From: Auanema rhodensis
Lineage: Eukaryota; Animalia; Nematoda
Length of the DNA: 64,000 nt
Assembly (NCBI GenBank): GCA_964057225.1
Contig: OZ059895.1
Coordinates: 10,602,001-10,666,000, forward strand
Direction: 5' to 3'
The notes under the pieces are model-generated. The model had not been told where the DNA came from. It saw only the letters and a list, made by a program, of their open reading frames with translations, and made no database searches. Position 1 is the first letter of the stretch. Every line of letters starts with the position of its first letter. This document shows positions 37,771-64,000 of this stretch, piece by piece. Both the position numbers and the translations under genes were made by a program.

Positions 37771-39107
37771 CGGCGGGTTCAACTTGCTATTTCGTTTGCT
37801 TTTTATGAAAATTTAAATATTCTACAATTTTTATTTCTTGTCCTAGAAGTACGTGCTACATCTCATTTGCCGCGTTCGATTTTTATGAAAAATAAAAAAG
37901 TTTAAAATGTTTATTTTTAGCCCTAGAAATACGTGCATCATCATATTCAACTTAAAATCGACTGTTTGATAATATAAATTAGGTTTTGTAAGTATATATC
38001 AATAGTAATCATGTTTTGCGGCGGGTTCCACTTGCTATTTCGTTTGATTTTTATGAAAAATTAAATATTCTAAAAATTTTATTTCTTGTCCGAGAAGTAC
38101 GTGCTAGATCTCATTTAAGTAAGACTTAGTTGATTGAGAAGGCAAAACAAATTTTGTTAGCACAGAACCATATTAATCATATTTTCCGGCGCGCTCAAAT
38201 TGCTATTTTGTTCGATTTTTATGAAAAATTAAAAATTTTTAAATGTTTTTTTTTAGCAATAGAAATACGTGCATCATCTTATTCAACTCAAAATCGACTG
38301 TTTGATAATATAAATTAGGTTTTGTAAGCATATATCCATAGTAATCATGTTTTGCGGCTGGTTCAACTTGCTATTTCGTTTGATTTTATGAAAAACCAAA
38401 TTTTTAAAATGTTTATTTTTAGCCCTAGAAATACGTGCAACATCTTATTCATTTCAAAGTTGACTTTCTGATAATATATATTTGGTTTTGTAAGCATATA
38501 TCCATAGTAATCATGTTTTGCGGCGGGCTCAACTTGCTATTTCGTTTGATTTTTATGAAAAATTAAATATTCTAAAAATCTTATTTTTTGTCCTAGAAAT
38601 ACGTGCTACATCTCATTCAACTGAGAATTAGTTGATTAAAAAAGTGAAACAAATTTTGTTAGCACAGAACCATATTAATCATATTTTTCGGCGGGCTCGA
38701 GTTGCTATTTTGTTCGATTTTTATGAAAAATTAAAAATTTAAAAAAGTTTATTTATAGCCTTAGAAATACGTGCAACATCTCATTAAACTCAAAATCGAC
38801 TGTTTGATAATTTAAATTTGGTTTTGTAAGCATATATCCATAGTAATCATGTTTTGCGGCGGGTTCAACTTGCTATTTCGTTTGATTTTTATGAAAAATT
38901 AAATATTCAAAAAATTTTATTTCTTGTCCTAGAACTACGTGCTACATCTCATAAAACTAAGAACTAGTTGATTGAAGAGGCAAAACAAATTTTGTTAGCA
39001 CAGAACCATATTAATCATATTTTACGGCGGGCTCAAATTGCTATCTTGTTCGATTTTTATGAAAAATTAAATATTTTTAAATTTTTATTTTTAGCCCTAG
39101 AAATACG
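37771..39107 (+). repeat. 168-bp satellite, forward orientation (end of main array)
   Basis: Forward monomers with more private substitutions, ending at ...CCCTAGAAATACGT where non-satellite sequence starts. Confidence 0.97.
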
Positions 39108-39660
39108 TAAACATAGATGCAAGCAGGATACTCATACTAAATTGAGTTGGGTTCGACGAATACAAAAATATTATTTACGATCATTACTTGCCATTGGGCT
39201 TGTGCATTATTAAATGATTATTTCCCACTGGGCTTGGAAAAGTAATCGGCTTTTGATATAGACCAACGCACCGTGCGCCAGTGGGACCATAGTTCATATT
39301 GTGAAAGAAAGTCGAATGAATTGGTACAAGTGCTCCGGAAAAGTAGTCGGCTCTTCTGAATCAAAAAAAAACTCTTCATTAAATTCGGACCGAGATTCAC
39401 TGGAAAGGCTTACATATTCCCGGCTAATAAACTGTTATTCGAAAAAATAACAGAAAAAAAAGGAGATGGATGCACAGTTCATTAAACATAAAAGAACACG
39501 CAAACCGGATGATAATAAGAAATAATAATCTGTGAAATCATGTGTTTTTTAATCAATTTTTTGTACATTTTTTCTGGCTTTCTTGTGATATTTAATAATT
39601 AATATTATTTCAATAAAATTTATCTATATTATTATTCTTATTTCATTTATTTTTGTATTT
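39108..39660. mobile_element. Rearranged second copy of the left end of the 47-56 kb Crypton-like element
   Basis: 39108-39238 is a direct copy of ~47103-47233. 39256-39658 is the reverse complement of ~47232-47633, with scattered substitutions. Confidence 0.9.
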
Positions 39661-42610: not shown

Positions 42611-42680
42611 GTGATGCTTGTTTAGCCAAGTATCTTGTTCTTTTCCAGCAATCTTATGAACGTTACAAGACTACTATATG
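42611..42680 (-). mobile_element. Partial, diverged LTR related to the adjacent Gypsy LTRs
   Basis: GTGATGCTTGTTTAGCCAAGTATCTTGTTC...TACAAGACT aligns with the LTR segments at 42811 and 46561, then diverges. Confidence 0.75.
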
Positions 42681-42809
42681 CTCAAAAAGACAAAGTAACA
42701 AAACCTAGAATGATCCAACTACTTGAGAGTACTCAAAAAAAATTAAACGAGAATCTTGACAATTAATTATCAAACAATTTCATACCTTACAGCTTTGGTT
42801 CGGCCCCCA

Positions 42810-43026
42810 TGTGATGCTTGTCTAGCCTAGTATCTTGCTCTATTCCAGCAATCTTTTGAACATTACAAGACTTTATTATATAGAGATAACTCTCTAGTGT
42901 TAGTATTAATAAGTAACACAATTTAAATAACCCAATAAAACAAAATCAAAAACAATCAGAAAAAAAGGAGACCTTTGTCTCACCAGTGAGCCCGACTCAA
43001 CTGACTCCCGTCCTCCTCTTATAACA
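42810..43026 (-). mobile_element. Gypsy LTR (217 bp), a duplicate of the 5' LTR including PBS and outer flank
   Basis: Minus strand reads TGTTATAAG...GCATCACA and is similar to 46560-46776. It is followed by PBS TGGGGGCCGAACC and has the same 43-bp flank (TGAAAGTAGATCATGC...) as the other LTR. Confidence 0.92.
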
Positions 43027-43069
43027 TGAAAGTAGATCATGCAAAATTGAAAAGGTGAAACAAATTTTG

Positions 43070-45420
43070 AACTTAATATACGTGTTATGGTCTCTTATTT
43101 CAAAATTCGTTAAAGATTTGATTATCGAATTCTAATCCTTTGTCAGAAATGATTCTTTTCGGAATCTTGCGCCCATATCCTATCCACCTATCAGCAAACG
43201 CTCCAAGAACCGCCTCCGCCGATATTTCTTTTATAGGATAGATCTCACACCACTTAGAAAAAAAATCTACCACTACTAGCCCATACCGATTACCTTTCTG
43301 GCTCACGTTTAACTCTACCAGATCCATGCCAATCACTTCGAACGGACTTGAAGTTAATATAGGTTTTAAAGGCGGTACATTATGTTTGGTATAGTTCTCC
43401 ATAAAACAACTTTTTCTTTGTAGGCAGAATTTGACAATGTCTCTTCTCATACTTGGCCAAAAATACTTATTTTCAAGAGTTAGATAAAGTTTTTCTGAGC
43501 CAAAAAGACCAGACCATTGTCCACCGTGTTCCTCATTTAGAACTTTTTCCCTCTCACCTGGTGCTATTACTTCCCTAATTCTACCTTCCGGATCAGTGTA
43601 CCGCAATACATCATGTTGTAATGAAAAATCCGAACTCTCTACACAACAACCCTCTACCTTAATTCTGACTTTTGTTTCTTCCTTAATAGCTTTAAATAGC
43701 TCCTTCCAACCTTCTGCATTTTTGAACCAACAATGCTCTGCTCTTTCACTTCTAACCTCCGCTATCACAATTTCTTCTGCAAAAGAGAGCTTATCAATAA
43801 CTTCATTTTCCCATCTTAATGGTCCTCTACTGAGCTTATCGGCTACTCTATTAGCAGGTTCATTTATGTACTCCATTTCTATTTCGTACGCTCTCAATTT
43901 AACCGCCCACCTTGTTACTCTATTAGAGCAATCTTCCCCCCTAAACAGACATAACAACGGTTGATGATCCGTTCTCACAATCACCCGAACTCCATAAATA
44001 AAACAGTGAAACCGATCGCAAACGAAACACGATTGCTAACGCTTCTAGGTCTGTTATAGCATATTTTATTTCATGTTTGATTAAAGATCTAGAGCAAAAA
44101 GCTATAGGATGTAAATGTCCATCTACCCCTACTTGTGTAAGAACACCCCTCAGTTTTTCGTTTTAATTGGCGTTTCTGTTATTTTTTTCTTTAACGATTT
44201 CTTCTGTTGTTCCTTCCATTCAAATTTCACTCCTAATGCACATAAATCATACAACGGCCTGATTTCTGCAGCAAAGCCTTTTATAAACTTCCTGTAGTAT
44301 GACAGTGAACCTAAAAAAGATTTCAACTGGGTTGTATTCCTCGGAACCGGGTATTCTGATATGGCTGCAACTTTCATCGGAACTTTCAATTCTGGCTTGA
44401 AAAACTCACATTTCGACGGCTTTAACCGTAAATTAAATTTTCTAAAGGCTAAAAATAAGATCCTAAGTACCTGTAGATGTCTTGCTTGAGTGACTGTTGC
44501 CACTATTATATCATCCAGATAGACATGGATTTCGCTTCCAACTAGACCTGTTTCTGCTAAAACAGTATCGATCGCTCTTTGGAATATTGCAGGGCTATTA
44601 GCAATTTCAAAAGGCAGCCTGTTAAACTCATATAACCCTTTATGGGTTATGAAGGCTGTTTTTGGCTTGGCTTCTTTATCTAAGGGTAACTGCCAAAAGC
44701 CTCGTAAACAATCCACAGATGAAAAGAACTTAGCCCGTGCCAGATATTGTAAAATTACTTCTATATTTGGAAGTGGATATTTGTCACTTACAATCACCTT
44801 ATTCAATTCTCTGTAGTCTACGCATAGGCGAAGAGATTTATCTCTCTTTCTTACTAAAACAATAGGTGCTGCTCAAGGAGATTTGGACCTGCTTGTAATG
44901 CCCTCCCGTTCCATCTCCTCCAACAAACAACTCAATTCTTCCCTCAAGCTGGCTGGGACTGGCCGCACTTGTTGTGCTACGGGACGCGCCTTACTAGTAT
45001 CAATAGACGCTGGCTGCACTTTCATGCCGGCTAGGTTCTCTGCCTCACTGCTAAAAATCTCTGTGTACTCATTAATCACCTTGTCCAGCTGATATTTTTG
45101 ATCTTTTGGCAGGTGCCCCAACTTTACATCTTGAAACCCTCGATTAGGTTCCTTTATTTTAATTGTACTAACTATTGCCTCCCCCAACTGCAAAATTCTG
45201 GATCGCTTGATCAACTCTTAACCTAAAACCTCAAACGCTTTGAATCCCAAGATAATTTCCAAACTATTGGAGTTCCTCACAAAACAAGATATTACCGCTT
45301 TGTTCTCTGTGCTATAGAGTTCTATTTCTAGGTCAGCTTTACCAACTAAACTTAACTGTTCCCCATTTACCCCTGACAGTGTTTCTTCTGTCTCTTTAAC
45401 CACAACTTTCTTGCCCATCC
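43070..45420 (-). pseudogene. pol: Gypsy pol (protease remnant, RT, RNase H, integrase N-terminus and core)
   Basis: RT motifs SP*AAPIVLV, LRLCVDYRELN, YPLP, KTAFIT, LPF, VYLDD. RNaseH motifs VRTDHQPL and ADKLSR. Integrase motifs YFWPSM, IGMDL, VVVDFFSKW, ISDKGLEF. Broken into ORFs 44873-45214, 44150-44806 and 43100-43984; ends before the catalytic Glu. Confidence 0.95.
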
Positions 45421-46488
45421 TGTTCACTATGTTTTCTTCCACTGATAATGAAGTATAATATTTATCGTACAACCTGTCCAACTCTCTTATAAATTCAACA
45501 ACACTATTGTGACAATTAAAAATGGAAAGGTTTCTCAACCTTTTTTCATTTTCCAGTTTAAACATATCAAACTGATGCTGAAACAATGTTCCCAACCTTA
45601 TTAACTTTTCTTCAAATGGAAGCGCTTTTTTTATTGATTTGAACGTTTCTAACGCGAAACCCGATAGACTGCTAGCAAAATAAAACGATGCGCTTCTGTC
45701 GTCAAGTCTTTGATGCTCAAACTTGAATTTAAAAAGCTCAATATGATCAGCTAAACTTTCAAAACGCTTTTCTTCAGAAAAAGATGTCAGGACCACACTC
45801 TGTCTAGTTTTCGCAACCTTTTGCTCAGCTGCTACTTTTTCTTGGTTTCGCAGAAGGCTTTTGACCAGCGCTTCTAACCTGTAGGCATGCTCCAGCGGGC
45901 TAATAACCGTAGGTTGTTCTGCGCTAGACGGTGTGGCTGTATCTCTCTCCAGTTCAACAGATCTCTCTCTCGCTTGGCGCGGCAGCTCTGAGTTTTTTCC
46001 ATCAAAATATCTTTCTCCCTTTTTGCCTTATCTAATTTTCCTTTCTACTGATTAACCGCTATTGCCGTTTGATTCACTATAAAAATAGCTTCCTCGCATT
46101 TGGTATTTTTTTCCGATATCTCCTTCTCTTTCTCCTGAAAGACATGCTCTAAGCGCTTGCTCTCTCTCACTGCCTCATTTTCTCTCTGTTTCACCATAGC
46201 TAGCAACATGTTCAACTCGTTTTCGTCTGCCACATCATGTGTAGCTGAAACAGACGTAACGTTTTGTAGAAACGCAGGCACTCTCTCTTCCAAATGTAAA
46301 CTAAGACATTCTGAAAATAGCGATGAACTTACTGTTGTAACTGCCTCATTTATCAGACTGATAGCCTTATCCCCCACTTCCTGGAAATGACTTGCTTTTC
46401 GAAGTGCTACAACATTTCCTTTCATCTCTTTGATCTCCTGGACCTTAGTTTCTAAAAAATTCCGGAACTCATACTTGAGAGTACTCAA
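45421..46488 (-). pseudogene. gag: Gypsy gag-like region (coiled-coil N-terminus, capsid-like segment)
   Basis: Lies between PBS and pol. ORFs 46045-46488 (coiled-coil-like) and the first part of 45218-45796 (FASSLSGFALETFKSI) are interrupted and internally deleted. Confidence 0.7.
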
Positions 46489-46545
46489 AAAAAATTAAAC
46501 GAGAATCTTGACAAATAATTATCAAACAATTTTACCTTACAGCTT

Positions 46546-46559
46546 CGGTTCGGCCCCCA
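46546..46559 (-). promoter_or_regulatory. Primer-binding site complementary to tRNA-Pro 3' end
   Basis: Minus strand TGGGGGCCGAACCG lies directly after the LTR's terminal CA. It matches the nematode tRNA-Pro 3' end CGGTTCGGCCC-CCA as recalled. Confidence 0.85.
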
Positions 46560-46776
46560 TGTGATGCTTGTCTAGCCTAGTATCTTGTTCTATTCTAGCA
46601 ATTTTATGAACAATACAAGACTTTATTATATAAAAATATCTTTCTAGTTTCAATATTAATTAGTAACACAATTTAAATAACCCAATAAAACAAAATCAAA
46701 AACAATCAGAAAAAAAGGAGACCTTTGTCTCACCAGTGAGCCCGACTCAACTGACTCCCGTCCTCCTCTTATAACA
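46560..46776 (-). mobile_element. Gypsy 5' LTR (217 bp)
   Basis: TG...CA termini, adjacent PBS, and a second copy at 42810-43026. Confidence 0.93.
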
Positions 46777-46794
46777 TGAAAGTAGATCATGCAA

Positions 46795-47100
46795 AATTGA
46801 AAAGGTGAAACAAATTTTGTTAACACAGACACATATTAATCCTGTTTTCCGGCGGGCTCAAGTTGCTGTTTTGTTCGATATTCAAGAAAAATTAAAAAAA
46901 TTTAAATGTTTATTTTTAGCTCTAGAAATACGTGCAACATCTCATTCAACTCAAAATTAACTGTTCAATAATATAAATTAGGTTTTGTAACCATATATCC
47001 GTAGTAATCATGTTTTGCGGCGGGCTCAACTTGCTATTTCGTTCGATTTTTATTAAAAATTAAATTTTTTTTTAATTTTTTTTTTAGCCCTAGAAATGCG
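46795..47100 (+). repeat. About two diverged satellite monomers, forward orientation
   Basis: Contains CAAATTTTGTTAACACAGACACATATTAATC, CGGCGGGCTCAAG and TAGCCCTAGAAAT. Confidence 0.93.
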
Positions 47101-47173: not shown

Positions 47174-47232
47174 ATCATTACTTGCCATTGGGCTTGTGCA
47201 TTATTAAATGATTATTTCCCACTGGGCTTGGA
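47174..47232 (+). repeat. Left (sub)terminal inverted repeat built from a 34-bp unit
   Basis: ATTACTTGCCATTGGGCTTGTGCATTATTAAATG followed by ATTATTTCCCACTGGGCTTG (period 34). Reverse complement at 56252-56300. Confidence 0.85.
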
Positions 47233-47365
47233 ATACAAAAATAAATGAAAAAAGAATAATAATATAGATAAATTTTATTGACTTAATATTAATTATTAAA
47301 TATCACAAGAAAGCCAGAAAAAATGTACAAAAAATTGATTAAAAAACACATGATTTCACAGATTA

Positions 47366-49373
47366 TTATTTCTTATTATTAGCCGGTTTGCGTGTTCTTT
47401 TATGTTTAATGAACTGTGCATCCATCTCCTTTTTTTTTCTGTTATTTTTTCAAAAAACAGTTTATTAGCCGGGAATATGTAAGCCTTTCCAGTGAATCTC
47501 GGTCCGAATTTAATGAAGAGTTTTTTGATTCAGAAAAGCCGATTACTTTTGCGGGGCACTTGTACCAATTCATTCGACTTTCTTTCACAATATGAACTAT
47601 GGTCCCACTGGCGCACGGTGCGTTGGTCTATATAAAAAGAGTAGTTTAATAATTGGTTTAAAAACCTTTTTCATCCGTGTACATATTATATATTTTTGTG
47701 TCCCCATCGTTATTTTTATTAGCCGTGAATGATACAGCATGGAGGGAAGTTGGAAATCGTGAAGCCGCTGTTGGAGATTGTGAAGATTGTGAAGCCGCTG
47801 ATAGAGATTCTGTAGTATTCATAGCCGAAGATATAGGTGTAACCGATCTTGAAGGTCTGCTAGAAGTAGATACCGATGGTTGACTGCAATTCGAAACCGA
47901 CGATTCAGACGAAGAACGCGATCGTGGAGTATCCAAGCTCAAAGTAATGTACTTCTAAAAAAATACTATACTATGATAAGTAATAAAGAATTAATTTTTT
48001 TTTGCCGGCGGCTCCGTACTCTGATCTTCTATAGCCCTAGTCGTTTTTGGGGTATTCATGCTCAAAGAAAAAACCTGTTTGAATTTATATAAGATGTTAT
48101 GTGTGGTTATAAAGCAACTAACCTGCTCTTGTGGTAATACCAAAACAGTGGGGGTGGCTAGGTGCATGCAAGCCGTACCGAGCTTTAATTAATACACAGT
48201 CATACTAACAATGGAGTTAACACTTACTAGACTATTGTCTAAACTTAGAAGTTGTGACATCAATCGTTTCTTGTATGTCCTCTGGTTTTTTTCATAAATG
48301 CCGGTTTAGTAGTACTTCGACAAAAAAAAATCCGTCTCATTTAATCTTTATTATCTGAATTATCTGGAGGTTTCTAAAAAAATATATTTATTAATAATAC
48401 CGAGATTCATTCAAATGAGTGATAAACTTACTATCGGATACAGAAACGTGTCGCACAGTCTTTCATTAAAAAAAATTCCTGCGTTGAGAAAGACTCAGCC
48501 GGTCTGCTTAAAGTATACAAGCCAATGAAACAACAATATTTACAAAATAAGAATGCTGCTGTAATCTGAGCCATGTTATAGACGAAGTTTTCATCTGAGA
48601 TTAGTGGTCTTAGATGAATAACATCACAATAAGTTGAGCCGTTTAAATATAGAACTGTTAAAGAAATAAAAAATTAAGGCTCACTGTTTTTGCCTGGCAG
48701 CCGTAGCGACCAAGACCTTTTCCATTACCACTGTTCTTGCAAGCCGTGGTAGGTATATGGTCATGTCCCCTTGTACATTTACACCGAACATAAGGCTTTG
48801 TTGACCCGATCTGAAAAAAGATATATGTTAAAAAACTATAACTAATAATATTCTACCTGTATTTCGATTTCAGTTTTATATAAAGAGGTGTCTCAAAAGC
48901 CTGCCGCGGAATCAATGTTTTAAAAATACAGCCGTCTCCCAAATAAGTCACCGGTTCCGCTAATTAAAACAGAGTTGAGAGAAAAGCAAGAAGCTGTATT
49001 GAATGTAGGGGCTGAAATGAATTAATTAAAATTAAAAAAAAATTGAATCTACATTATCCCTGCGCCATTCAAGAGTTTTATGCTCATAGCCGACAATTAT
49101 AAGATGATACTGTACTTAGAGAGTGAACCAAGTACAGACTTCTCCCTGCCTAGCCGATACAAGCGCAGCCGGTAGCTAAATGTTAATAATATAATAATAT
49201 AACAATAGTAATAAATTAATAATAATATAACATTTATGAATATAATAAGACCTTGCCACGAAAGTATTGCGCAGCCGTTTGTCCACATCATTGCCTATGA
49301 TCGCATAGGAAGTCGGTGATAGGTCGCGGAAGTAATATGAATGTAACTCTTTGAACAATAATTTTACATCCAT
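47366..49373 (-). pseudogene. Multi-exon gene of unknown function carried by the element (Ser-rich linker, basic C-terminus)
   Basis: TTCAG|ATG at 49373 (MDVKLLFKELHSYYFRD...). GC-richer exons are separated by short AT-rich GT-AG introns (exon peptides LAEPVTYLGDGCIFKTLIPRQAFETPLYIKLKSKY, SGQQSLMFGVNVQGDMTIYLPRLARTVV, LYLNGSTYCDVIHLRPLISDENFVYNMAQ). Ser-rich exon 47658-47942; likely end ...KHKRTRKPANNKK*. Several stops and frameshifts. Confidence 0.65.
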
Positions 49374-49403
49374 CTGAAGTTAGAAATTAAAATTAAAAAC
49401 AAT

Positions 49404-49436
49404 AAAAAAAAAAAATATATATATATATATATATTG

Positions 49437-49470
<34 letters not shown>
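49404..49470. repeat. Poly-A, (AT)n and (TAA)n microsatellite in the AT-rich spacer between the divergent genes
   Basis: Directly visible runs of about A12, (AT)10 and (TAA)11. Confidence 0.9.
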
Positions 49471-49473
<3 letters not shown>

Positions 49474-50905
49474 TAATATATAATAAAATATAATACAAAA
49501 CAATAATGATCAATAATTAGCATAGCTTATGTACATTCAATATTTAAATATTCAAAAGCGCCTCAAGACTCACTAAATTATAAATTATAACACTGCTGTA
49601 TAGATATTAATAGTTATGCTACATTTAATATGTCGTCTTGGGAAGAAAACTTATTTCATAATTATTCAATTATTACAATAAATTATTGATTAATTATTAT
49701 CAAATATATTCTGCTTTTCATTTAATTATTTTTATTTGAGTTTTTTTACATACAGTTCGGCCTCCTTTTTAAAATCATTTTGTATTTTATATTATGTTTA
49801 TTTATATTTTTTATTTATTTTAAGATGCAGTTAAGCAGTTGGGAGATACGAAGAAGTTACAGTTCGGCAAACTGGACTGGAAATAAAAAAAATTGGAATA
49901 GGACGAGGGTTTTTTAACTCTTTTGAAATTATTTTTATTTGTTTAGGAGTTTTCACGAAGAAAACATTTAAAAAAAATGTGGTAGTAACGGCTTATTATA
50001 TTAACAAAGATGAAAAACCAACGGAAGAGATGGATGATTATTCCATCTCTTTAACTACGGGCGGAACATCATACAACGGCTATCGAAAAGCGGTGGAGTT
50101 TAAAAAAGAAGACGGCTTCAGATATTACGGAAACCTTATTAGCCATGCCACGGGCAGTCATGCGAATACTCGGCTTTAAAATAAAACAAGACAGGGCGTG
50201 CGAATGATATTGGTAATTACAAAGCGGCTAATATATTGTGGAGAGCAGCTACTAATTGATTACTATGAGTTTGTTTTTTTCCCATGTTTTTTATATAGCC
50301 TTTACTCAGTGGTGGCGGACGTTGCTTGATAAGACATCAGTACGATTGTATTTGTTGTAAATGTCGGAATTCCTGGTGCTACTGTTATAAGCACGATGCC
50401 ATGCAACTCACGGCGGCTTTCGAAAGGTATATAAAATATAAAAATATCAGTATATAAAAAAAATCTCATGAATCTAAATTCAGTAAACTTATTGTATTTC
50501 CTAATAATGAAGCGGAATTGGGTGATGGAAAGGAAAAGCGGCTATGCCCATTTTGTATAAAAATTGTAGATCGGAAATTTAAGAGTTGTTACCGGGACCA
50601 TATAAAAAAAAACAGCGGCGGGATAGATAAGTTCAAAGAGTTTATTTCTTGGTATGTTTCTTTTTCATTATTAATTTTTTCACATTTCATTTGTGGGTGG
50701 CGGAAGAATAAACATTCTGGAATAGCCGCGGATCTATTAAAAAAGTTCTTGGAGGAAGAACAGAATAAAATACAACAGAAAAATACGGCTTCAACGGCTG
50801 ACATTGAGGATGATGACGACGGCGGCTTACCTCATTTGGTTAGTTCTTTTTTAGTTTTCAAAGGTTCTTTGGGACCCACTTAATTTTCAAAATAAATTAA
50901 GTGGG

Positions 50906-52750
50906 TGTCGTTCCATCCGGATGATCAATACGTAGCAGGCGGGTTAGAGCTAGACGACAAGAGACGAGAGGAGCTGAAACGCCCTTTAAATGGAACTCAG
51001 ACAGTTCTGTCTCATGGAATGACTAAGGATGGCTTGTCATCTCCTCGGAGCTCACCTATAGTTTATATCTCTTCATTTCTTATCGTAACTTATTGTAACC
51101 ATTATGTAGAATAAACCTTTCTTTTCATGAGTCTTATGTTTATCCATTATGCTCTATTAATACCGCTACATCTGAAACACTATATCGCACATCTTATAGA
51201 CTACATTGGTCTATAGGATAGATGCGAGAGCATAACGGAAGGTTGGAGGTTCCACCTCGAACGTTTCTTTTACTTTCTCTTATTTTCTTAAATTTTATTC
51301 ACTCTTGTAATAATCATTTTCTTTTTAACTTTCTCCTATTCATTGCCATCTTCTCCACGCTAAAACACAAAACGGAAGAGCCAACATCGTTATAGGGAAC
51401 AGATGCAAGGAACTCTCATAATAAGAGAGTAAAATTATACATTTTGGGAAGAATTTATTTTACTTGATCCCGTTGTTCACAATTTTGTCATGTCTGAAAA
51501 TAAGTCACATATCCTTGCTATTAACATCTGATTTATACTGTTACCCGACCTCGAAGCCACATGAGGACTTTAGGCTGAATTCGTGAACAGATTCACCTAA
51601 AGATTTTATATATTTTGACTATTACCCACACCATTCTCCTTTTTAGGATTAATTTCGGCTTTGATTAAAGAATAACTCCAGTTATTCCTTAAATTTTGTG
51701 GATGAAAAGCATGCCAATTTGAAATTTAAATAATTTTGCGATGAGGACTATTACATTTTGCGTTTAAAATCGTTCAGACAACCTTTAGCATTTACCATCC
51801 AAAAACATAACAAAACGCTTAAAAATTGTACGGGAAACCTCACAACAAGTGAGAGGATGTTTAATTTTAATAACTTATATTCGCTATAGTCCGAAAAATC
51901 CTGCGATATTCTTACAAACTGATCTCCCAATTTAAATTTATTCGTCAGGTCGAGTTGGCTTAAGCATATCAGTTTGGATTTTCTCCCTTTACTATATGTC
52001 ACCTTCCTCATACCGTTATTGTTGTTTTGAAGCATAAGACTCATTCCTAAACACCATAATTCTGTAAATATAGTTATTGTAATTTTTAGTCATCTATTTC
52101 TAGCCATAATTTTAAAACTAGATTTCTGATCATTATGGGACTACCGTACTCATTCGTTTTCTAAATTGCTTCCTCAAAGAGTAAGAGTGTCGCTATCATC
52201 AACGAAGAGACAGCAGAGGAGAAGCCGAACGTGGAAAAATTTTACACACCCCGCGCAGGTACGTTTTCTCCTTCAGAACATTCTAGTGATCCGGACTACA
52301 TACCATCTGGAGACGACGAGCGACCCTTGATCATAGACGAACAGACACCTAACCAATATAATCAAACAGAGCACATTACTCCTCAGGAAGTTCAAAATCT
52401 GCACATACAGTAATAGCTGTTCCGAAAAAAATGACTGAGCCCGCAACCAATTTACCCGGAGCGGGGAAAACAACAATTGCCCAAGTTTTGACAGCACCCT
52501 ACTGCCCTGTTTATGACGGTAGCCTCAATTTCCGCGACTTTACCGCTAAATTTAATGTCTTCGCTAATGCACTTGGCCTAGTGATACCTGAAAGGTTGAC
52601 TCTTCTGCCGTTGCTTCTTAAAAATGATGCGGCAAAAGAACCATACAAACAAACTCCTGAACACCTTAAAACATCGAGTTCATGAAACGATATATTGCAC
52701 ATCTTATAGACTACATTGGTCTATAGGATAGATGCGAGAGCACAACGGAA
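50906..52750 (+). mobile_element. Truncated LTR retrotransposon (5' LTR, long leader, gag fragment) inside an intron
   Basis: Putative LTR 50906-51170 (TGTCG...CTACA, AATAAA at 51110) and a gag-like peptide downstream. Lies between donor TTG|GTTAGT (50839) and acceptor TTTACAG (52786), which join in frame. Confidence 0.75.
52135..52685 (+). pseudogene. gag: Gypsy-like gag fragment
   Basis: CPVYDGSLNFRDFTAKFNVFANALGL...LLPLLLKNDA resembles the retrotransposon capsid N-terminal pattern. In-frame stops upstream. Confidence 0.7.
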
Positions 52751-53991
52751 TGGTCCCAACAATTTAAATAATTTTTACATTTACAGAAAGAAATCCAGTA
52801 TTGGAAAAGGGGAATCAGATGTAAATTGATAAAGGAACTCGCCTACTATCTACCCCAATCTGAGGTACATCCCATGTTAACGGCTTTCGAAAAAAACGAC
52901 GACGGCTTTCCCCTGAGCATGATGAAGAAAAAAAAGTACAAAGTTGAGGACAGTAGAGTATGTTATTATTAATTTACTATTTAAATTTGTTTTTTTACAG
53001 AGGCAAAAGGCTAACAAGGTTGAAACGGCTACTTTTAAAACTTAGTCCAGCTTTATATATTTCACTATGCGGCTGAAAAAATCCAGGAATGTTGATATTT
53101 TAGATATGTGAGGTTAAAAAAGTGTTCAGTATTTTTCTTTTTCTTTCAAATGTTTTTTTAAGGCTTCCAAAAAATTGATCGAAATTGTTCAACATCAAAT
53201 AACGGCTGTCAACAATAAATACTCTTTGTTGACATTTACGAACGATTTAGGTCGGGCTTTCAACACCTTGTCCAGGTTTGAATCAGAAGACGGCTTTCCT
53301 CAATTGGTGGCATCCATACGACGGCTGAAAAAAATAGTGGAACCTGTGAGTTAGGCTTTCATTTTCTCTCGGACGTAATTTTAGATTATAAAATTTAATG
53401 AAACTAACGAAAGCTCAAATGGAATTTACCGACGTTCTTCACCAGCTACAAAAAATTCCATAGCTTCGCTAGACCACGGCTGCAAAAACTGGTAGCGGAA
53501 TATAAAGATATTGATAAAGTAAGAAAATAAAAAATAATTTTTTTCTTTCAGATCGCGGAAAAAATAAAATTAATGAGGAAATGTTCGGTTTACCTATGCT
53601 TTCACTTACTATATAATCTCGGTGTCCAAAGTGAAATTTTTTACAAGATTAAAACTAACGATATGATGGCGGCTTTGGAGAGAAGATCTGATCAATATGA
53701 AACGGCTTTGGTACCTTTTTTTTCAAAGAACGGACAAACATTATACGTGGTGGTTAATCTGGAATTGATGGCTCTCTATGAATTTTACATGAAAGAGAGG
53801 TAGCAAATACTATTATATCTTTTATTCATTACTTCCAGAATTAAATTATTTCCGAATAAATTATATTTATTCGCTAACTCGGAGAGCGATAATCTGAACG
53901 CGGCTTGCAATAATATGGTAGAATCAGCTTCTGTATTTCCGGAATTCTTGCATACAATAGCTTATGAGTTGATATTATTTAGACGTACCTA

Positions 53992-55399
53992 CAGTCCTGT
54001 GCGAAATAGTTGGGACACCCTCAACTAAAAGACCCCAGAAACCCACTTCAAACTACAAAAAAAAATTTCAAAAAATTAATTTAGGTTTCAGGATCAAGTA
54101 TCAAGAGATATTGATTGAAAATAGACTTTAAAATGATGAAAACTGAATTTTTAAAAAATAATTTAAGTTTAAAATTGAATTTTATGCTGATTTCATTGTT
54201 TTGCATAATTAAAAATGAAAATTCATAATTTAAGATGGTTAGAGGCAAGAAAACTACCCCTGAAGTACAAAACATTGTTCTAAGCATGAAGAATAGAGGG
54301 TTCAGCGTACGGAAGATAAGTCAGCTACTGACTTTGCCGAAGAGTACGATTCAAAATATTTGGAAAGCTTCACAAGAACCATACCAAATGGAGACAAGAA
54401 GAAGAGGAAGAAAAACAACAGTAGGACAAGATAATGTATTAATTAAACTCGTAGAGCGGCATCCGGATATCACGTCATCCGAGTTAAGCCAACATCTTCT
54501 AAGAATGTTCAGGATTAGGCTTGATCCTTCGAATATTCGACGAAGATTGTTGGCGAGAAATCTAAGAGCTCGAGTTCCTGCACGAAAGCCTCTAATATCG
54601 GTTGGTAACAGGCAGAAGAGAATAGATTTTGCCCGAGAGCATTTAAACTGGACGTTCGAAGATTGGTCATCTGTAATATTCACAGATGAGAGCAAGTTCT
54701 GCCTGTTTGGAAACGATAGACCAGGATTTGTAAGAAGACCTCGAAATCAACGCTTCAACCCTAAATACATGCTACCCACGGTGAAGCATGGTGGCGGCAA
54801 CGTCATGGTTTGGGGCTGCTTTTGTGCTTCCGAAGTTGGCCCTCTTTTTCGTATAGAAGGCAGGATGTGTGCCGAAGATTACCAAAATATATTAGAAGAA
54901 TGTTTCCTGCCGTATGCTGTATCAAAATTTGGAACAAGAAATCGGTTCATTCTTCAACAAGATAATGATCCGAAGCACACTGCTCGTTCGACTACAAGGT
55001 TTCTGGAGGACAATCGCCTGAACGTGCTGAAATGGCCTAGCCAATCTCCAGATCTCAACCCTATTGAGCATCTTTGGAGGGACTTGGCCGACGTTCATCG
55101 CAATTCCCATGTTCGAACAAAGATGAGAAATTCAGAGTCCTACGAACACTCTGAAGAGAAATAACACCGACTCTTCTGAAGAAACTCGTCGAATCGATGC
55201 CCAGAAGACTTCAGGCAGTAATTGATAATTTTGGCTATCCTACTAAATATTAATAAACGTGTTAATTTCAATTTTTAATTTTAGATTTTTTTTTTAGAGT
55301 TTTTGAATACTCATCATATTTTTTTTCGATTTTTTTGTAGTTTGTTTCGAAAGATATGAGGGATTCTAGTAAGTGTCCCAACTATTTCGCACAGGACTG
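53992..55399 (+). mobile_element. Tc1 (DD34E) DNA transposon, 1408 bp
   Basis: Perfect 27-bp TIRs CAGTCCTGTGCGAAATAGTTGGGACAC (53992-54018 and 55373-55399). TA target duplication at 53990-53991 and 55400-55401. Confidence 0.98.
54235..55253 (+). pseudogene. Tc1 transposase with C-terminal frameshift and stop
   Basis: HTH N-terminus, WSSVIFTDESKF, VMVWGCF, QQDNDPKH-(34 aa)-SPDLNPIEHLW. The canonical end LVESMPRRLQAVIDNFGYPTKY* is in another frame after ~55117, with TGA at 55152. Confidence 0.95.
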
Positions 55400-56251
55400 T
55401 ATATAGGTGCGATAGATTCTTTTAATCCGGAATCAGAGGAAGCAAAACGGCTAATGAGGGAGACCCATGCTCAGGCTCAAGGACATTCATTGGCTGTAAG
55501 TTTTCATTCAATTTTAAATCACTAGTACTTACCTTCAGATACGGGCAAAAGAGTACAGCTATTTAACGGAAGAGAGTGCATTACTCTCTTTCTCACATTC
55601 CCTTGAATTAATGAACAAAGATTACCAGGCTGACCGAAGAAAATCAATTATCAACGAGATAAATAAGAATAGAGTACTGATTATACGGGAAAGGAGCACT
55701 CACAACGGCTGATTAAAATCGAAAAGGATATAGTGAAGATCACAGCTAAAAACAAGGAAATGGCTGAGAATTGTTTCCAATGCTGCATATGCTGCATCAT
55801 ATGGAAAGATATGATCACCATAATTCCGTGCGGTCACCAAATTTGTATTGATTGCGGCTTCAAAATCATGGAAACATCAAATAAACGGAACCCTGGTAAA
55901 TATTTGTGCCCAGTGGTAGGTAATCATTTTTAAACTTCTCTGATATAAGTATTGCAGTGTCGGCTACCTTTTAAGGACATCGTAAAGGATTTTTCAAAGG
56001 AAGAACGGACCCAATTGAAAAAAGAAATGTTTACGGCTGTGGAGATCCACAAAAGTGAGCATTCCTTTGCGGAATTGAAACAGTACATGAAAGGATGCGG
56101 AAGAAATGAGGAAAGGCTAGCACCCATATTTAGGGTTATTACAATCGATTAGAAATTTGTTTTATGGAAATATAAATGTTTTATTCTATTCTTGTTCTTG
56201 TGCACTACTTTTTTTGTTCAATCAATATATCAACCTATCTATTTATCTATA

Positions 56252-56300
56252 AAATAATCATTTAATTATGCACAAGCCCAATGGGAAGTAATCATTTAAT
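56252..56300 (-). repeat. Right (sub)terminal inverted repeat (34-bp unit)
   Basis: AAATAATCATTTAATTATGCACAAGCCCAATGGGAAGTAATCATTTAAT is the reverse complement of the left repeat. Confidence 0.85.
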
Positions 56301-57410: not shown

Positions 57411-57503
57411 AGTTTTACTTAGATAGCTCAACCCACGGCAGCAAATTATCTTCAATCTTATTTCTATATTACAGTTATGAACCAGTAGTTAATGAACCTT
57501 CAT

Positions 57504-57602
57504 GGCCCGGTTAGTAGTTGGATCGGAGACGGCTTGAAAATCCCGTGTGCCGTAAGCTTTTCAAATTTTTTTAACGATCATAACACGTTGAAAGTACGCC
57601 AT
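57504..57602 (+). pseudogene. 5S 3'-half followed by a 5S 5' fragment (3' halves also at ~60757, 61003, 61743, 63937)
   Basis: GGCCCGGTTAGTAGTTGGATCGGAGACGGC...GTAAGC, T-run, then ACGATCATAACACGTTGAAAGTACGCCAT. Confidence 0.8.
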
Positions 57603-58507
57603 GCAGCTGATTTTTAATTTTATCTCTTCCGCAACAAATGTTTCCAATTTTCAAGCAATTTTACTTAGATAGCTCAACCCAAGGCAGCAAATTATCTTCA
57701 ATTTTATTTCTATATTACAGTTATAAACCAGAAGTTAATGAACCTTCATCTTAGCTTTACTGTTTCTCTCTATTTCCTATTGTAACAAACATTGTTTAAA
57801 CACTATACCACTGTGAAACCTTTTTTAATTTATTGTAGTTTGAGCTCATAAGATTTGATATCATCTAGGGATTCAGATAAAACGTGGAAAATTACATAAC
57901 TAGCACAGAAGCTCAAACAGTGGAAGACGAAAGAAAAAATGGAATCGCACTTTAACTACCTCATATAGGACCAATATGGGATATAATGATGACGAACTGG
58001 AAATGGATCATGCCGCTTGTAGCCGTGATTGCCGCTGTTATATACTTCCTCTCTACTTCTGCTTCATTCTTCATGCCAGCTCTTATATCGGTCATACTTT
58101 CCTACTACTGTTTGGAAAAAACCAGCAATCCCCCTGTTGCAATATCAGGAAATGCCTGATTAAATTACATTTCACCCATTGACCTAGTACATATATTAAG
58201 ATATCTGATTACAATATTAAGATATCTGAATACAATTTCAAGAAAATACCGATCATTATTTTATTATTGCGCAACACTAACCCTCCCATTGTATCAATTT
58301 TCTACACAACCTCAAACCATATATAAGCTCGAAGATACGAGCCATTTTTCACTCTTAATTTATTTTTACCACTGAACCTATAACGATCTTATAATAAACT
58401 CTTCTCATTTAACTAACTGTTTGGATTTGCCACTAACTCATATTATCCCCATTAACCGGGGAACAACCGAGTATAGACGCTTGTCATTGGGAACATTAAA
58501 ACACAAA

Positions 58508-58616
58508 CATACCACGTTGAAAGTACGCCATCCCGTCCAATCTGGCACGTCAAGCAAAGTTGGGCCTGGTTAGTAGTTGAATCGGAGACGGCTTCGGAAT
58601 CCCGGGTGGCGTAAGC
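58508..58616 (+). pseudogene. 5S rRNA-derived copy lacking ~9 nt at the 5' end
   Basis: CATACCACGTTGAAAGTACGCCATCCCGTCCAATCTGGCA...GGTTAGTAGTTGAATCGGAGACGGC...GTAAGC followed by a TTTT run. Closely follows nematode 5S, but the 5' GCTTACG is replaced by ACACAAA. Confidence 0.88.
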
Positions 58617-59566
58617 TTTTCAAATTTTTTTAACAATCTTAACACGTTGAAAGTACGCCATGCAGGTGATTTTCAATTTTATCTCTTCCGTAATAAATGT
58701 TTTCAATTTTCAAGCAGTCTTACTTAGATAGCTAAACCCAAGGCAGCAAATTATTTTAAATCTTATTTCTATATTACAGTTATAAACCGGTAGTTAATGA
58801 ACCTTCATCTTAGCTTTACTGTTTCTATCTATTTCCTATTGTAACAAACATTGTGTAAACACTATATAACTGTAAAACCTTTTTTAATTTATTGTATTTG
58901 GAGCTCATAAGATTTGATAACATCGAGGGATTCAGATGAAACGTGGAAAATTACATAACTAACACAGAAGCTCAAACAGTGGAAGACAAAAGAAAAAATG
59001 GAATCGCACTGGAACTACCTCATATAGGACCAATATGGGATATAATGATGACGAACTGGAAATGGATCATGCCGCTTGTAGCCGTGATTGCCGCTGCTAT
59101 ATACTTCCTCTCTACTTCTGCTTCATTCTTCATGCCAGCTCTTATATCGGTCATACTTTCCTACTGCTGTTTGGAAAAAACCAGCAATCCCCCGGTTGCA
59201 GTATCAGGAAATGCCTGATTAAATTACATTTCACCCATTTACCTAGTACATATATTAAGATATCTGATTACAATATTAAGATATCTGAATACAATTTCAA
59301 GAAATTACCGATCATTATTTTATTATTGCGCAACACTAACCCTCCCATTGTATCAACTTTCTACACAACATCAAACCATATATAAACTCGAAGATACGAG
59401 CCATTTTTCACTCTTAATTTAATTCTACCACTGAACCTATACCGATCTCATAATAAACTCTTCTCATTTAACTAACTGATTGGATTCGCCACTAACTCAT
59501 ATTATCCCCATTAACCGGGGAACAACCGAGTATAGACGCTTGTCATGGGGAACATTAAAACACAAA

Positions 59567-59675
59567 CATACCACGTTGAAAGTACGCTATCCTGTCCAAT
59601 CTGGCACGTCAAGCAAAGTTGGGCCTGGTTAGTAGTTGGTTCAGAGATGGCTTGGGAATCCCGGGTACCGTAAGC
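59567..59675 (+). pseudogene. 5S rRNA-derived copy lacking the 5' end
   Basis: Same sequence one repeat unit later, with extra substitutions. Confidence 0.85.
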
Positions 59676-62600
59676 TTTTCAAACTTTTTTAACGATCCTA
59701 ACACGTTGAAAGTACGCCATGCAGTTGATTTTCAATTTTATCTCTTCCGCAACAAATGTTTTCAATTTTCAAGCAGTTTTACTTAGATAGCTCAACCCAA
59801 GGCAACAAATTATCTTTAATTTTATTTCTATATTGCAGTTACGAACCAGTAGTTAATGAACCTTCATTTTAACTTTACTGTTTCTATCGTTTTCCTATCG
59901 TAACAAACATTGTTTAAACACTATACAACTGTGAAACCTTTTTTAATTTATTGTATTTTGAGCTCATAAGATTTGATATCATCGAGGGATTTAGATGGAA
60001 CGTGGAAACTTACATAACTAACACAGAAGCTCGAACAGTGGAAGACGAAGGAAAAAATGGAATCGCACTAGAACTACCTCATATAGAACTAATATATGAT
60101 ATAATGATGACAAACTGGAAATGGATCATGCCGCTTGTAGCCGTGATTGCCGCTGTTAAATACTTCCTCTCTACTTCTGCTTCATTCTTCATGCCAGCTC
60201 TTATATCGGTCATACTTTTCTACTGCTGTTTGGAAAAAACCAGCAATCCCCCTGTTGCAGTATCAGGAAATGCCTAATTAAATTACATTTCACCTATTGA
60301 CTTAGTAGATATTTTAAGATATCTGATTACAATATTAAGATATCTGAATACAATTTCAAGAAAATACCGATCATTATCTTATTATTGCGCAACACTAACC
60401 CTCCCATTGTATCAACTTTCTACACAACCAAAAACCATATATAAGCTCGAAGATACGAGCCATTTTTCACTCTTAATTTAATTCTACCACTGAACCTATA
60501 CCGATCTTATAATAAACTCTTCTCATTCAACTAACTGTTTGGATTCGCCACTAACTCATATTATTTCCATTAACCGGGGAACAACCGAGTATAGACGCTT
60601 GTCATTGGGAACATTAAAACACAAACATACCTCTTCCGTAATAAATGTTTTCAATTTTCAAGCAGTTTTACTTAGATAGCTCAACCCAAGGCAGCAAATT
60701 ATCTTCAATCTTATTCCTATATTACAGTAATGAACCAGTAGTTAATGAACCTTCATGGCCCGGTTAGTACTTGCATCGGAGACAGCTTAGAAATCCCGGG
60801 TGCCGTAAGCTTCTCAAATTTTTTTAACGATCATAACACGTTGAAAGTACGCCATGCAGCTGATTTTCAATTTTATCTCTTCCGTAATAAATGTTTTCAA
60901 TTTTCAAGCAGTTTTACTTAGATAGCTCAACCCACGGCAGCAAATTATCTTCAATCTTATTCCTATATTACAGTTATAAACCAGAAGTTAATGAACCTTC
61001 ATGGCCCGGTTAGTAGTTGAATCGGAGACGGCTTGGGAATCCCGGTTGCCTTAGCTTTTCAAATTTTTTTAACAATCATAACACGTTGAAAGTACGCCAT
61101 GCAGGTGATTTTCAATTTTATCTCTTCCGTAATAACGCTTGTCATTGGGAATATTAAATAGACGCTTGTCATTGGGAATATTAAAACACAAACATACCTC
61201 TTCCGTAATAAATGTTTTCAATTTTCGAGCAGTTTTACTTTTGCAGTATCAGGAAATGCCTAATTAAATTACATTTCACCTATTGACTTAGTAGATATTT
61301 TAAGATATCTGATTACAATATTAAGATATCTGAATACAATTTCAAGAAAATACCGATCATTATCGTATTATTGCGCAACACTAACCCTCCCATTGTATCA
61401 ACTTTCTACACAACCAAAAACCATATATAAGCTCGAAGATACGAGCCATTTTTCACTCTTAATTTAATTCTACCACTGAACCTATACCGATCTTATAATA
61501 AACTCTTCTCATTCAACTAACTGTTTGGATTCGCCACTAACTCATATTATCCCCATTAACCGGGGAACAACCGAGTATAGACGCTTGTCATTGGGAACAT
61601 TAAAACACAAACATACCTCTTCCGTAATAAATGTTTTCAATTTTCAAGCAGTCTTACTTAGATAGCTAAACCCAAGGCAGCAAATTATCTTCAATCTTAT
61701 TCCTATATTACAGTTATGAACCAGTAGTTAATGAACCTCCATGGCCCGGTTAGTAGTTGGATCGGAAACGGCTTGGGAATCCCGGATGGCATAAGCTTTT
61801 CAAATTTTTTTAACAATCATAACACGTTGAAAGTACGCCATGCAGCTGATTTTTAATTTAATCTCTTCCGTAACAAATGTTTTCAATTTTCTAGCAGTCT
61901 TACTTAGATAGCTAAACCCAAGGCAGCAAATTATCTTTAATCTTATTTCTATATAACAGCTATGAACCAGCAGTCAATGAACCTTCATCTTAACTTTACT
62001 GTTTCTATCTTTTTCCTATCGTAACAAACATTGTTGAAACACTATACAACTGTGAAACCTTTTTTAATTTATTGTATTTGGATCTCATAAGATTTGATAT
62101 CATCGAGGAATTTAGATGTAACGTAGAAAATTACATAACTAACACAGAAGCTCAAACAGTGGAAGATGAAGGAAAAAATGGAATCGCACTGGAACTACCT
62201 CATATAGGACCAATATAGGATGTAATGATGACGAACTGGAAATGGATAATGCCACTTGTAACCGTGATTACCGCTGCTATATACTTTCTCTCTACTTCTG
62301 CTTCATTCTTCATGCCAGCTCTTATATCGGTCATACTTTCCTACTGCTGTTTCGAAAAAACCAGCAATCCCCCTGTTGCAGTATCAAGAAATGTCTGATT
62401 AAATTACATCTCACCCATTGACCTAGTACATATATAAAGATATCTGATTACAATATTAAGATATCTGAATACAATTTCAAGAAAATAACGATCATTATTT
62501 TATTATTGCGCAACACTAACTCTCCCATTGTATCAACTTTCTAAACAACATCAAACCATATATAAGCTCGAATATACGAGCCATTTTTTACTCTTAATTT

Positions 62601-62746
62601 AATTTCACCACTGAACCTATACCGATCTTATAATAAACTCTTCTCATTCAACTAACTGTTTGGATTTGCCACTAACTCATATTATCCCTATTAACCGGGG
62701 AACAACCGAGTATAGACGCTTGTCATTGGGAACATTAAAACACAAA

Positions 62747-62855
62747 CATACCACGTTCAAAGTACGCCATCCCGTCCAATCTGGCACGTCGAGCAAAGTT
62801 GGGCCTGGTTAGTAGTTGGATCGGAGACGGCTTGGAAATCCCGGGTGGCATAAGC
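62747..62855 (+). pseudogene. 5S rRNA-derived copy lacking the 5' end
   Basis: Same sequence; GTTAGTAGTTGGATCGGAGAC control-region segment present, followed by a T-run. Confidence 0.87.
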
Positions 62856-63052
62856 TTTTCAAATTTTTTTAACGATCATAACACGTTGAAAGTACGCCAT
62901 GCAGCTGATTTTCAATTTGATCTCTTCCGTAACAAATGTTCTCAATTTTCAATCAGTTCTACTTAGATAGCTCAACCCAAGGCATCAAAATATCTTCAAT
63001 CTAATTTCTATATAACAGTTATAAACCAGCAGTCAATGAACCTTCATCTTAA

Positions 63053-63457
63053 CTTTACTGTTTCTATCTTTTTCCTATCGTAACAAACATTGTTGAAACA
63101 CTATACAACTGTGAAACCTTTTTTAATTTATTGTATTTGGAGCTCATAAGATTTGATATCATCGAGGGATTTAGATGGAACGTGGAAATTTACATAACTA
63201 ACACAGAAGCTCGAACAGTGGAAGACGAAGGAAAAAATGGAATCGCACTAGAACTACCTCATATAGAACTAATATGTGATATAATGATGACGAACTGGAA
63301 ATGGATAATGCCACTTGTAACCGTGATTGCCGCTGCTATATACTTTCTCTCTACTTCTGCTTCATTCTTCATGCCAGCTCTTATATCGGTCATACTTTCC
63401 TACTGCTGTTTAGAAAAAACCAGCAATCCCCCTGTTGCAGTATCAGGAAATGCCTAA
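63053..63457 (+). pseudogene. Transmembrane ORF fragment repeated in each 1059-bp unit, possibly an env glycoprotein C-terminus (also 58943-59218, 59951-60277)
   Basis: Open frame with no true start. ...LELPHI(GPIW/ELIC)DIMMTNWKWIMPLV(A/T)VIAAAIYFLSTSASFFMPALISVILSYCC...: aromatic stem, hydrophobic helices, Cys pair, short tail. Confidence 0.45.
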
Positions 63458-64000
63458 TTGAATTACATTTCACCTATTGACTTAGTAGATATTTTAAGAT
63501 ATCTGATTACAATATTAAGATATCTGAATACAATTTTAAGAAAATACCGATCATTATCTTATTATTGCGCAACACTAACCCTCCCATTGTATCAACTTTC
63601 TAAACAACCTCAAACCATATAAAAGCTCGAATATACAAGCCATTTTTTACTCTTAATTTAATTCTACCACTGAACCTATACCGATCTTATAATAAACTCT
63701 TCTCATTCAACTAACTGTTTGGATTCGCCACTAACTCATATTATCCCCATTAACCGGGGAACACCCGAGTATAGACGCTTGTCATTGGGAACATTAAAAC
63801 ACAAACATACCTCTTCCGTAATAATTGTTTTCAATTTTCAAGCAGTCTTACTTAGATAGCTAAACCCAAGGCAGCAAATTATCTTCAATCTTATTCCTAT
63901 ATTACAGTTATGAACCAGTAGTTAATGAACCTCCATGGCCCGGTTAGTAGTTGGATCGCAGACGGCTTGGGAATCCCGGATGGCATAAGCTTTTCAAATT

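Follow-up and report, generated by a model that had tools for sequence, protein, structure and literature searches.

Introduction

The closest described counterpart of the system reported here is the VANDAL/VANC anti-silencing system of Arabidopsis Mutator-like elements, in which a short, family-specific motif recurs in many copies. VANC motifs are 8–9 nucleotides (nt) long and form part of non-coding tandem repeats, and the coding probes examined lack them, according to the available excerpts of two reports (PMC5735166; also PMC10398659). Here we analyzed a 64,000-nt stretch of the nematode Auanema rhodensis (GCA_964057225.1, contig OZ059895.1, positions 10,602,001 to 10,666,000, forward strand; hereafter the window) and describe a transposon whose two divergent genes carry 43 copies of the pentamer CGGCT on the sense strand of their predicted exons. 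All positions below are those of the window.

In its gene content, the element resembles Cryptons: it is a DNA element with introns and a likely tyrosine recombinase (predicted from sequence), and no reverse transcriptase was recognized in it. Unlike Cryptons, it has terminal inverted repeats (TIRs) of 44–57 nt and no clear 4–6-bp direct repeat, its recombinase carries SET, zinc finger and RING domains, and it has a second, divergent gene. Cryptons lack TIRs and have 4–6-bp direct repeats, as excerpts of two studies describe them (PMC3212892, PMC13465315), and for this reason we regard the element as at best Crypton-like and do not file it as a Crypton. The consulted parts of a 2014 survey of nematode and outgroup genomes report a single Crypton, in Nematostella (PMC4157794); the excerpt of another paper mentions CryptonV only as microsatellite-targeting (PMC8869645), and those of two others contain nothing on the element (PMC12166591, PMC5240408). 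No SET-plus-recombinase transposon and no oriented CGGCT array was found in the open full-text literature, a scope that leaves aside Repbase Reports and subscription journals, which may catalogue such fusions. Animal recombinases fused to KMT5A-like SET domains form part of the general background, not a tested match to this element. With its TIRs, SET domain, zinc finger, likely tyrosine recombinase, RING domain and second divergent gene, the element fits no family described in the literature searched and is undescribed or poorly described.

Bacterial genomes offer a second kind of likeness. Chi, KOPS and DNA-uptake sequences are short words that are over-represented in coding sequence in several frames; Chi and KOPS are polarized about a centre, and uptake sequences alter protein sequence. 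They function across entire bacterial chromosomes through RecBCD/AddAB, FtsK or uptake machines, whereas the element is a 5.9-kb eukaryotic unit in which no such enzyme was identified.

Results and discussion

Distribution of CGGCT in the element

The TIR-bounded element occupies 47174–56300, slightly wider than the limits of 47340–56060 given by a sequence-only reading; removal of two nested insertions leaves 5,873 nt of its own DNA. Over this length CGGCT points outward at 43 sites and inward at two (binomial p = 6e-11), and it is both the most enriched and the most asymmetric 5-mer. The expectation is 2.6 under a first-order Markov model, and local dinucleotide shuffles in blocks of 50–300 nt gave means of 2.7–3.6, and none of the 3 x 500 shuffles exceeded 11. 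The manual counts of the sequence-only reading were reproduced: 47340–49380 contains 17 AGCCG and one CGGCT, and the element's own DNA in 49800–56060 contains 26 CGGCT and one AGCCG (27 and two with the insertions included, one of each coming from the nested long terminal repeat [LTR] fragment). As had also been claimed, the nested Tc1 element contains neither word (0:0) and the LTR fragment one per strand. Two Gypsy pieces nearby gave 0:3 and 0:1 for CGGCT on their sense strands.

That reading described the motif as covering the element and flipping at its AT-rich centre. The flip was confirmed and falls between 49277 and 49989, around a centre at 49374–49825 that has 16% GC, lacks CGGCT on both strands and is likely the bidirectional promoter region of the two genes. 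The coverage was not: each of the 43 outward sites is on the sense strand of a predicted exon, and none lies in the 1,705 nt of introns, centre and ends, where 12.5 would be expected if the sites were uniform and 1.5 if scaled to 20% GC. The last 200–260 nt before either end of the element also contain no CGGCT. Because the flip coincides with the divergence of the two genes, the polarity can just as well be stated as a sense-strand rule; with two divergent genes, sense-strand and end-pointing orientation coincide and are inseparable here.

The sites occur once per 137 nt overall (mean gaps of 112–118 nt), or about once per 95 nt of exon, and in the right gene their spacing is more even than random (coefficient of variation 0.63, p = 0.008 in spliced sequence; 0.65, p = 0.012 in genomic sequence). 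No helical or nucleosomal periodicity of the sites was found (best power 6.5 versus a null mean of 7.7), and the 43 sites shared no longer consensus beyond a weak preference for A/G before and not-C after the word. Neighbouring words that CpG decay would produce were not clearly enriched (CAGCT, 5 versus 3.5; TGGCT, 3 versus 3.8).

The outward geometry could reflect a Chi-like or replication-polarity signal, reading 5' to 3' toward the nearer end, that protects or recombines an excised or broken copy; such a word could spread by biased conversion between copies and need have no role in chromatin. A nuclease, helicase or recombination complex entering from an end would meet a single orientation of the word, and the sites are exactly outward on both arms, although the geometry gives no independent support because outward equals sense here. 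The polarized pentamer Chi sites and protein-reshaping uptake sequences of bacteria also speak for this explanation. The lack of the word in AT-rich DNA is consistent with a drive that depends on mutational access (the 1.5 sites expected above), and a 17-nt stretch matching the surroundings of a site lies at the inversion junction of a partial duplicate (a single event; see below). Passage through an excised circle has been proposed for a tyrosine-recombinase element, according to an excerpt of PMC3212892. On the other hand, no helicase, primase, or nuclease beyond the recombinase was recognized in the open reading frames (ORFs) of the element, and the stretches nearest its ends are free of sites. 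The related suggestion of the sequence-only reading, oriented priming sites, gained no positive support, with no primase, helicase or polymerase gene recognized in these ORFs. To our knowledge, no sequence-specific signal of this kind for resection or priming has been described in eukaryotes. We consider an explanation of this type quite unlikely.

Two further words were recorded in the exons. CGGAA is mildly sense-enriched (16:5 in all exons; 15 in the right gene, where synonymous shuffling gives 6.3), and ACG outnumbers CGT by 66:14 in the exons of both genes. Mimicry of the telomere repeat, presumably TTAGGC, was rejected because AGGCT showed a ratio of only 8:3.

Filling of encodable positions

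We compared the sites with the positions at which the encoded protein permits the word. In the right gene (2,382 nt of in-frame sequence), CGGCT is present at 26 of 34 encodable positions, which is the highest filling among the 699 words with at least 15 such positions (median 9%; 3% for words with four G/C). Under synonymous permutation the mean was 5.4 and no more than 13 positions were filled in any of 3,000 permutations, and codon-order shuffling yielded 2.2; half of the eight unfilled positions are one substitution away from CGGCT. In the left gene, for which only stop-free frames were used (1,119 of ~1,660 exon nt), 12 of 19 encodable positions are filled, compared with a mean of 2.0 and a maximum of 7 in 3,000 synonymous shuffles. 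The reverse word fills 1/16 positions in the right gene and 0/14 in the left gene, and thus the orientation of the word matters. As a control, six neighbouring transposon ORFs (4,206 nt, all intronless) fill 0/40. The earlier description of a second code overlaid on the exons is therefore supported by the filling of 26 of 34 positions against the synonymous mean of 5.4.

The sequence-only reading had further noted that the word falls in all three codon phases and that codon or amino-acid usage does not explain it. Both statements hold: 8, 12 and 6 right-gene sites lie in the three phases, the enrichment survives synonymous permutation, and the choice of codon depends on the neighbouring codon. 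The Arg codon is CGG in 8/9 cases before Leu and in 9/33 elsewhere; NCG codons are used in 13/17 cases before Ala and in 21/127 elsewhere; and the Gly codon is GGC in 6/7 cases before T and in 6/29 elsewhere. It is true that the right gene makes frequent use of the codons CGG, GCT, GGC and ACG and that a Ser-rich, repeat-like stretch of the left gene has three sites at 30-nt intervals, as would be expected if the pattern were a side effect of codon usage, amino-acid composition or local repeats. However, the frequent codons are picked mainly where they complete CGGCT, the flanks of the 43 sites share no long consensus, no tandem repeat covers the sites, and the enrichment survives both synonymous and codon-order shuffles. 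A by-product of this kind is hardly credible, being refuted unless the reading frames are badly wrong. A dicodon-preserving shuffle, which had been proposed earlier as a control, is an unfair null because 20 of the 26 right-gene sites sit within one codon pair and are fixed by construction.

The amino acids themselves favour the word. The right-gene protein offers 34 encodable positions versus 19.6 ± 4.0 after amino-acid shuffling, which suggests that amino acids were changed to make room for CGGCT. A word that fills three quarters of the positions permitted by a protein, in one orientation, is rarely so visible in eukaryotic coding sequence, and such filling implies selection or drive on nearly every site. 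From these patterns we infer that the array was built by selection rather than by mutation bias. The data call for an agent that profits from every additional site and is sensitive to orientation.

One candidate for such an agent is a host factor that reads CGGCT in mRNA as an exonic splicing enhancer or as an export, stability or anti-silencing signal; the signal may be common in host exons and would be saturated here because the 21–23 introns are tiny and AT-rich. All 43 sites are exonic and sense, and sites occur in 21 of the 23 predicted exons, the exceptions being the shortest two (82 and 63 nt). The ORFs that fill 0/40 are all intronless, and a host exon signal therefore remains a rival. 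By eye, however, the sites show no preferred distance from splice sites, and filling of 76% together with a bias in the protein would be extreme for a splicing enhancer. The share of CGG among Arg codons is 16/48 in the element (a tally from the frame set preceding the correction of three segments) versus 9/93 in the neighbouring transposon ORFs, and a related protein with the same intron, P0002 (described below), is unable to encode most of the sites. A search of the full-text literature for an exonic CGGCU or GGCU motif in nematodes returned nothing relevant. We regard a host signal as unlikely, though worth keeping in view.

Genes and encoded domains

The right gene (49826–56152, plus strand) consists of 14 predicted exon pieces with 26 sense-strand CGGCT and ends in a stop codon at 56150–56152. 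The exon models of both genes were drawn by eye from GT-AG borders and open frames, with some junctions mutated or uncertain by 1–2 nt; the predicted introns are 25–76 nt long and end in TTTCAG or TTTTAG, as would suit a nematode-like host. Exons 1 and 2 (49826–50268, plus strand; sites at 49989, 50077, 50113, 50171 and 50225) encode a SET domain (Pfam SET, E value 8e-5). In a comparison with PDB, the best 14 of 19 matches were all KMT5A/SETD8 (E values 2e-4 to 2e-3), and this H4K20 monomethyltransferase, also called PR-Set7, thus provides the closest solved relatives; the similarity is distant, and the SET domain of the element, unlike KMT5A/SETD8, is predicted to be fused to a transposon protein. 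This copy has an in-frame stop at 50177 in the SET exon, which is absent from a sister copy.

A Cys-rich post-SET stretch, a candidate CxxC..H..H zinc finger (BED/C2H2-like, a lead only) and an acidic linker follow at 50299–50838 (plus strand), with sites at 50414, 50539, 50786, 50795 and 50823 and an inward site at 50724. The frameshifted middle exons (52787–53991, plus strand; 11 sites between 52881 and 53901) likely encode the body of a tyrosine recombinase, judging from motifs identified by eye. These include RRT at the end of the region; Gln occupies the position expected for the first catalytic Arg, and the first His was not seen. The last exons (55401–56152, plus strand; sites at 55448, 55706, 55855, 55961 and 56034) encode G-H-x8-Y, which together with RRT we take to be of tyrosine-recombinase type in motif and spacing, and a C3HC4 RING domain (zf-C3HC4, E value 2e-4, above its cut-off). 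Neither exon-sized pieces nor a read-through of the recombinase region gave a Pfam, PHROGs or homologue match, and none of 243 candidates was a homologue of the read-through. From its motifs, the large right-gene protein is likely a tyrosine recombinase. The only DDE domain recognized within the bounds of the element is that of the nested Tc1, with no reverse transcriptase or DDE among the element's own ORFs.

The left gene (47356–49373, minus strand) has about nine predicted exons and is decayed by frameshifts and stops, so that both genes of this copy are decayed. Its 17 sense-strand CGGCT are at 47381, 47467, 47537, 47721, 47763, 47793, 47823, 48171, 48497, 48637, 48699, 48742, 48930, 49088, 49152, 49167 and 49273 (minus strand). 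It encodes a CxCxxxHxH cluster and the Ser-rich stretch. Its last exon (47356–47627), which is split by a frameshift and has no Pfam hit, looks by eye like what we take to be a Tudor/PWWP pattern; if so, a methyl-lysine reader would be paired with the SET writer.

Related copies

A sister copy in sequencing runs is ~85% identical to the element and lacks both nested insertions. In the SET exon, one contig of this copy, from run X7, departs from the element at 38 of 285 nt. Third codon positions account for 19 of the 31 listed differences, and the four assessable CGGCT sites, which do not include that at 49989, contain none of the 31 (P about 0.04 from codon-position rates). Outside this copy, P0002 was the sole homologue of the SET ORF among 1.84 billion representatives. 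It is 54% identical and reads through the same intron position, and it can encode two sites where the exon of the element can encode six; only one of the five real sites is encodable. Because P0002 cannot encode four of the five aligned sites, the CGGCT array is probably younger than the split of the two proteins, as far as these sequences indicate. The word fills no encodable position of the neighbouring intronless transposon ORFs and, as an array, is probably absent from P0002. A homologue search with the SET alignment returned, at near lengths, only P0002 itself among 320 candidates and, at longer lengths, 0/1,629; no DNA loci of relatives, including ones with other gene layouts, were found in metagenome or viral contigs.

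Within the window, a rearranged partial duplicate at 39105–39660 (plus strand) has the same satellite junction and left TIR, followed by the last 410 nt of the left gene in inverted orientation. It retains two of three CGGCT sites. The 17-nt stretch at its junction matches the region around site 47537, including CGGCT, like a templated insertion. A contig of sequencing run X7 tracks the left end of the element to 47252 and then continues into unrelated sequence; it may represent a non-autonomous derivative or a different family with the same terminus.

A proposed transcription-oriented self-tag

We tentatively propose, with a probability of roughly 0.4, that the 43 sense-strand CGGCT are a selected, direction-sensitive self-tag, likely read during transcription by an element-encoded protein. 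A protein of the element would read CGGCT, on oriented DNA or on nascent RNA, and bring the KMT5A-like SET domain, perhaps with the RING domain, to the element's own chromatin. The candidate readers predicted from the sequence are the BED-like zinc finger and the Cys/His protein of the left gene. Through H4K20 methylation, copies may be kept active by protection from silencing or be licensed for excision. Each extra site would add a little occupancy, which would explain the even spacing and the saturation. We favour the self-tag on three grounds: chromatin-type domains are encoded in the element, the word seems restricted to one lineage, and VANC is a precedent for element-specific motifs with an element-encoded reader.

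The analogy to VANC, drawn already in the sequence-only reading, holds for the many copies of a short motif and for a possible element-encoded reader. It fails in design, in that VANC motifs are longer and form non-coding tandem repeats, whereas the word of the element is a dispersed, strictly oriented exonic 5-mer. The VANDAL arrays were built by repeat expansion and that of the element by point substitution; the element also resides in an animal-like genome and has a SET domain and no VANC domain.

A bolder form of the proposal is that a transposon with its own histone methyltransferase rewrote its coding sequence, down to the amino acids, into an oriented barcode by which its own protein marks and licenses the element's copies; sister families would have words of their own. 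We hold this form to be somewhat doubtful; if true, it would amount to a self-recognition code laid over the genetic code. Should an element-encoded reader act with the SET domain, the system would parallel plant VANC anti-silencing in an animal, though with another design, and would be a compact means of marking chromatin by sequence. Should a host factor or a Chi-like process account for the array instead, it would expose a hitherto unknown host signal.

Several observations weigh against the self-tag. A reader whose only task is to bring a histone modifier to double-stranded DNA would have no need of a fixed orientation, and the free non-coding DNA carries no sites although such a reader could use it. 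VANC motifs are non-coding and longer, whereas the word here has 5 nt and lies in exons in 43/43 cases, with none in tandem repeats. Of the candidate readers, the zinc finger is a sub-threshold lead (ESM Atlas scores of 0.84–0.86 to zf-BED and zf-C2H2_12 clusters, below the 0.9 level), and the left gene gave no significant match in Pfam, PHROGs or, for one of its ORFs, the ESM Atlas. The exon bounds were set by eye with the motif already in view, and every control ORF in the window is intronless, which leaves room for a host exon signal. In the amino-acid-level comparison, CGGCT ranked 9th of 1,024 words (z = 3.1), most of the higher words overlapping it. The conservation test comprises one contig and four sites, one of them at the limit of the listed differences; P0002 is possibly from another host, so that its missing sites do not separate element- from host-specificity; and one of three sites was lost in the partial duplicate at 39 kb.

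Ends, nested insertions and surrounding sequence

The left TIR (47174–47230, plus strand) comprises two copies, one degenerate, of a ~28-nt unit, and pairs as an inverted repeat with the right TIR (56252–56300, minus strand) through arms of 44 nt at 93% and 28 nt at 93%. The TIR unit holds a GGCT core (as GGGCTT) three times, facing inward and thus opposite to the internal array, which may be chance. Gypsy RNase H/integrase sequence starts at ~56309, and the right flank aligns to the other Gypsy copy (score 104 versus a shuffle maximum of 45). The 65 nt left of the left TIR were tried as a continuation of this right-hand Gypsy and rejected (score 24 versus a shuffle mean of 25.5, not significant). 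Direct repeats at the candidate junctions amount to at most a 2-nt match, with the exact ends uncertain and the left flank not tied to the right flank.

Both nested insertions are absent from the sister copy. A fragment of a high-copy LTR retrotransposon (~50906–52750) lies inside an intron, and the Tc1 element (53992–55400, plus strand; DDE_3, HTH_Tnp_Tc3_2) is inserted at a TA in an exon.

Most of the window is taken up by a 168-bp satellite (1–42600), fragments of Gypsy elements and, beyond 57.4 kb, a 5S rRNA array. The satellite has 219 copies in its first array with a 336-bp dimer structure, its variant monomers recur ~1.68 kb apart, suggesting a higher-order repeat, and its orientation switches several times near 36.7–42.6 kb. 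A Gypsy-type LTR retrotransposon in the satellite (42611–46819, minus strand) has 287-nt direct repeats at 95% and interrupted frames. The 5S rRNA tandem array (57413–64000), in which Rfam detected no spliced-leader gene, consists of ~1.06-kb units with truncated 5S-like pieces between them. Several of the 5S copies hold ACGGCTT near the 3' part of the gene, which is also the commonest extension of the element's word.

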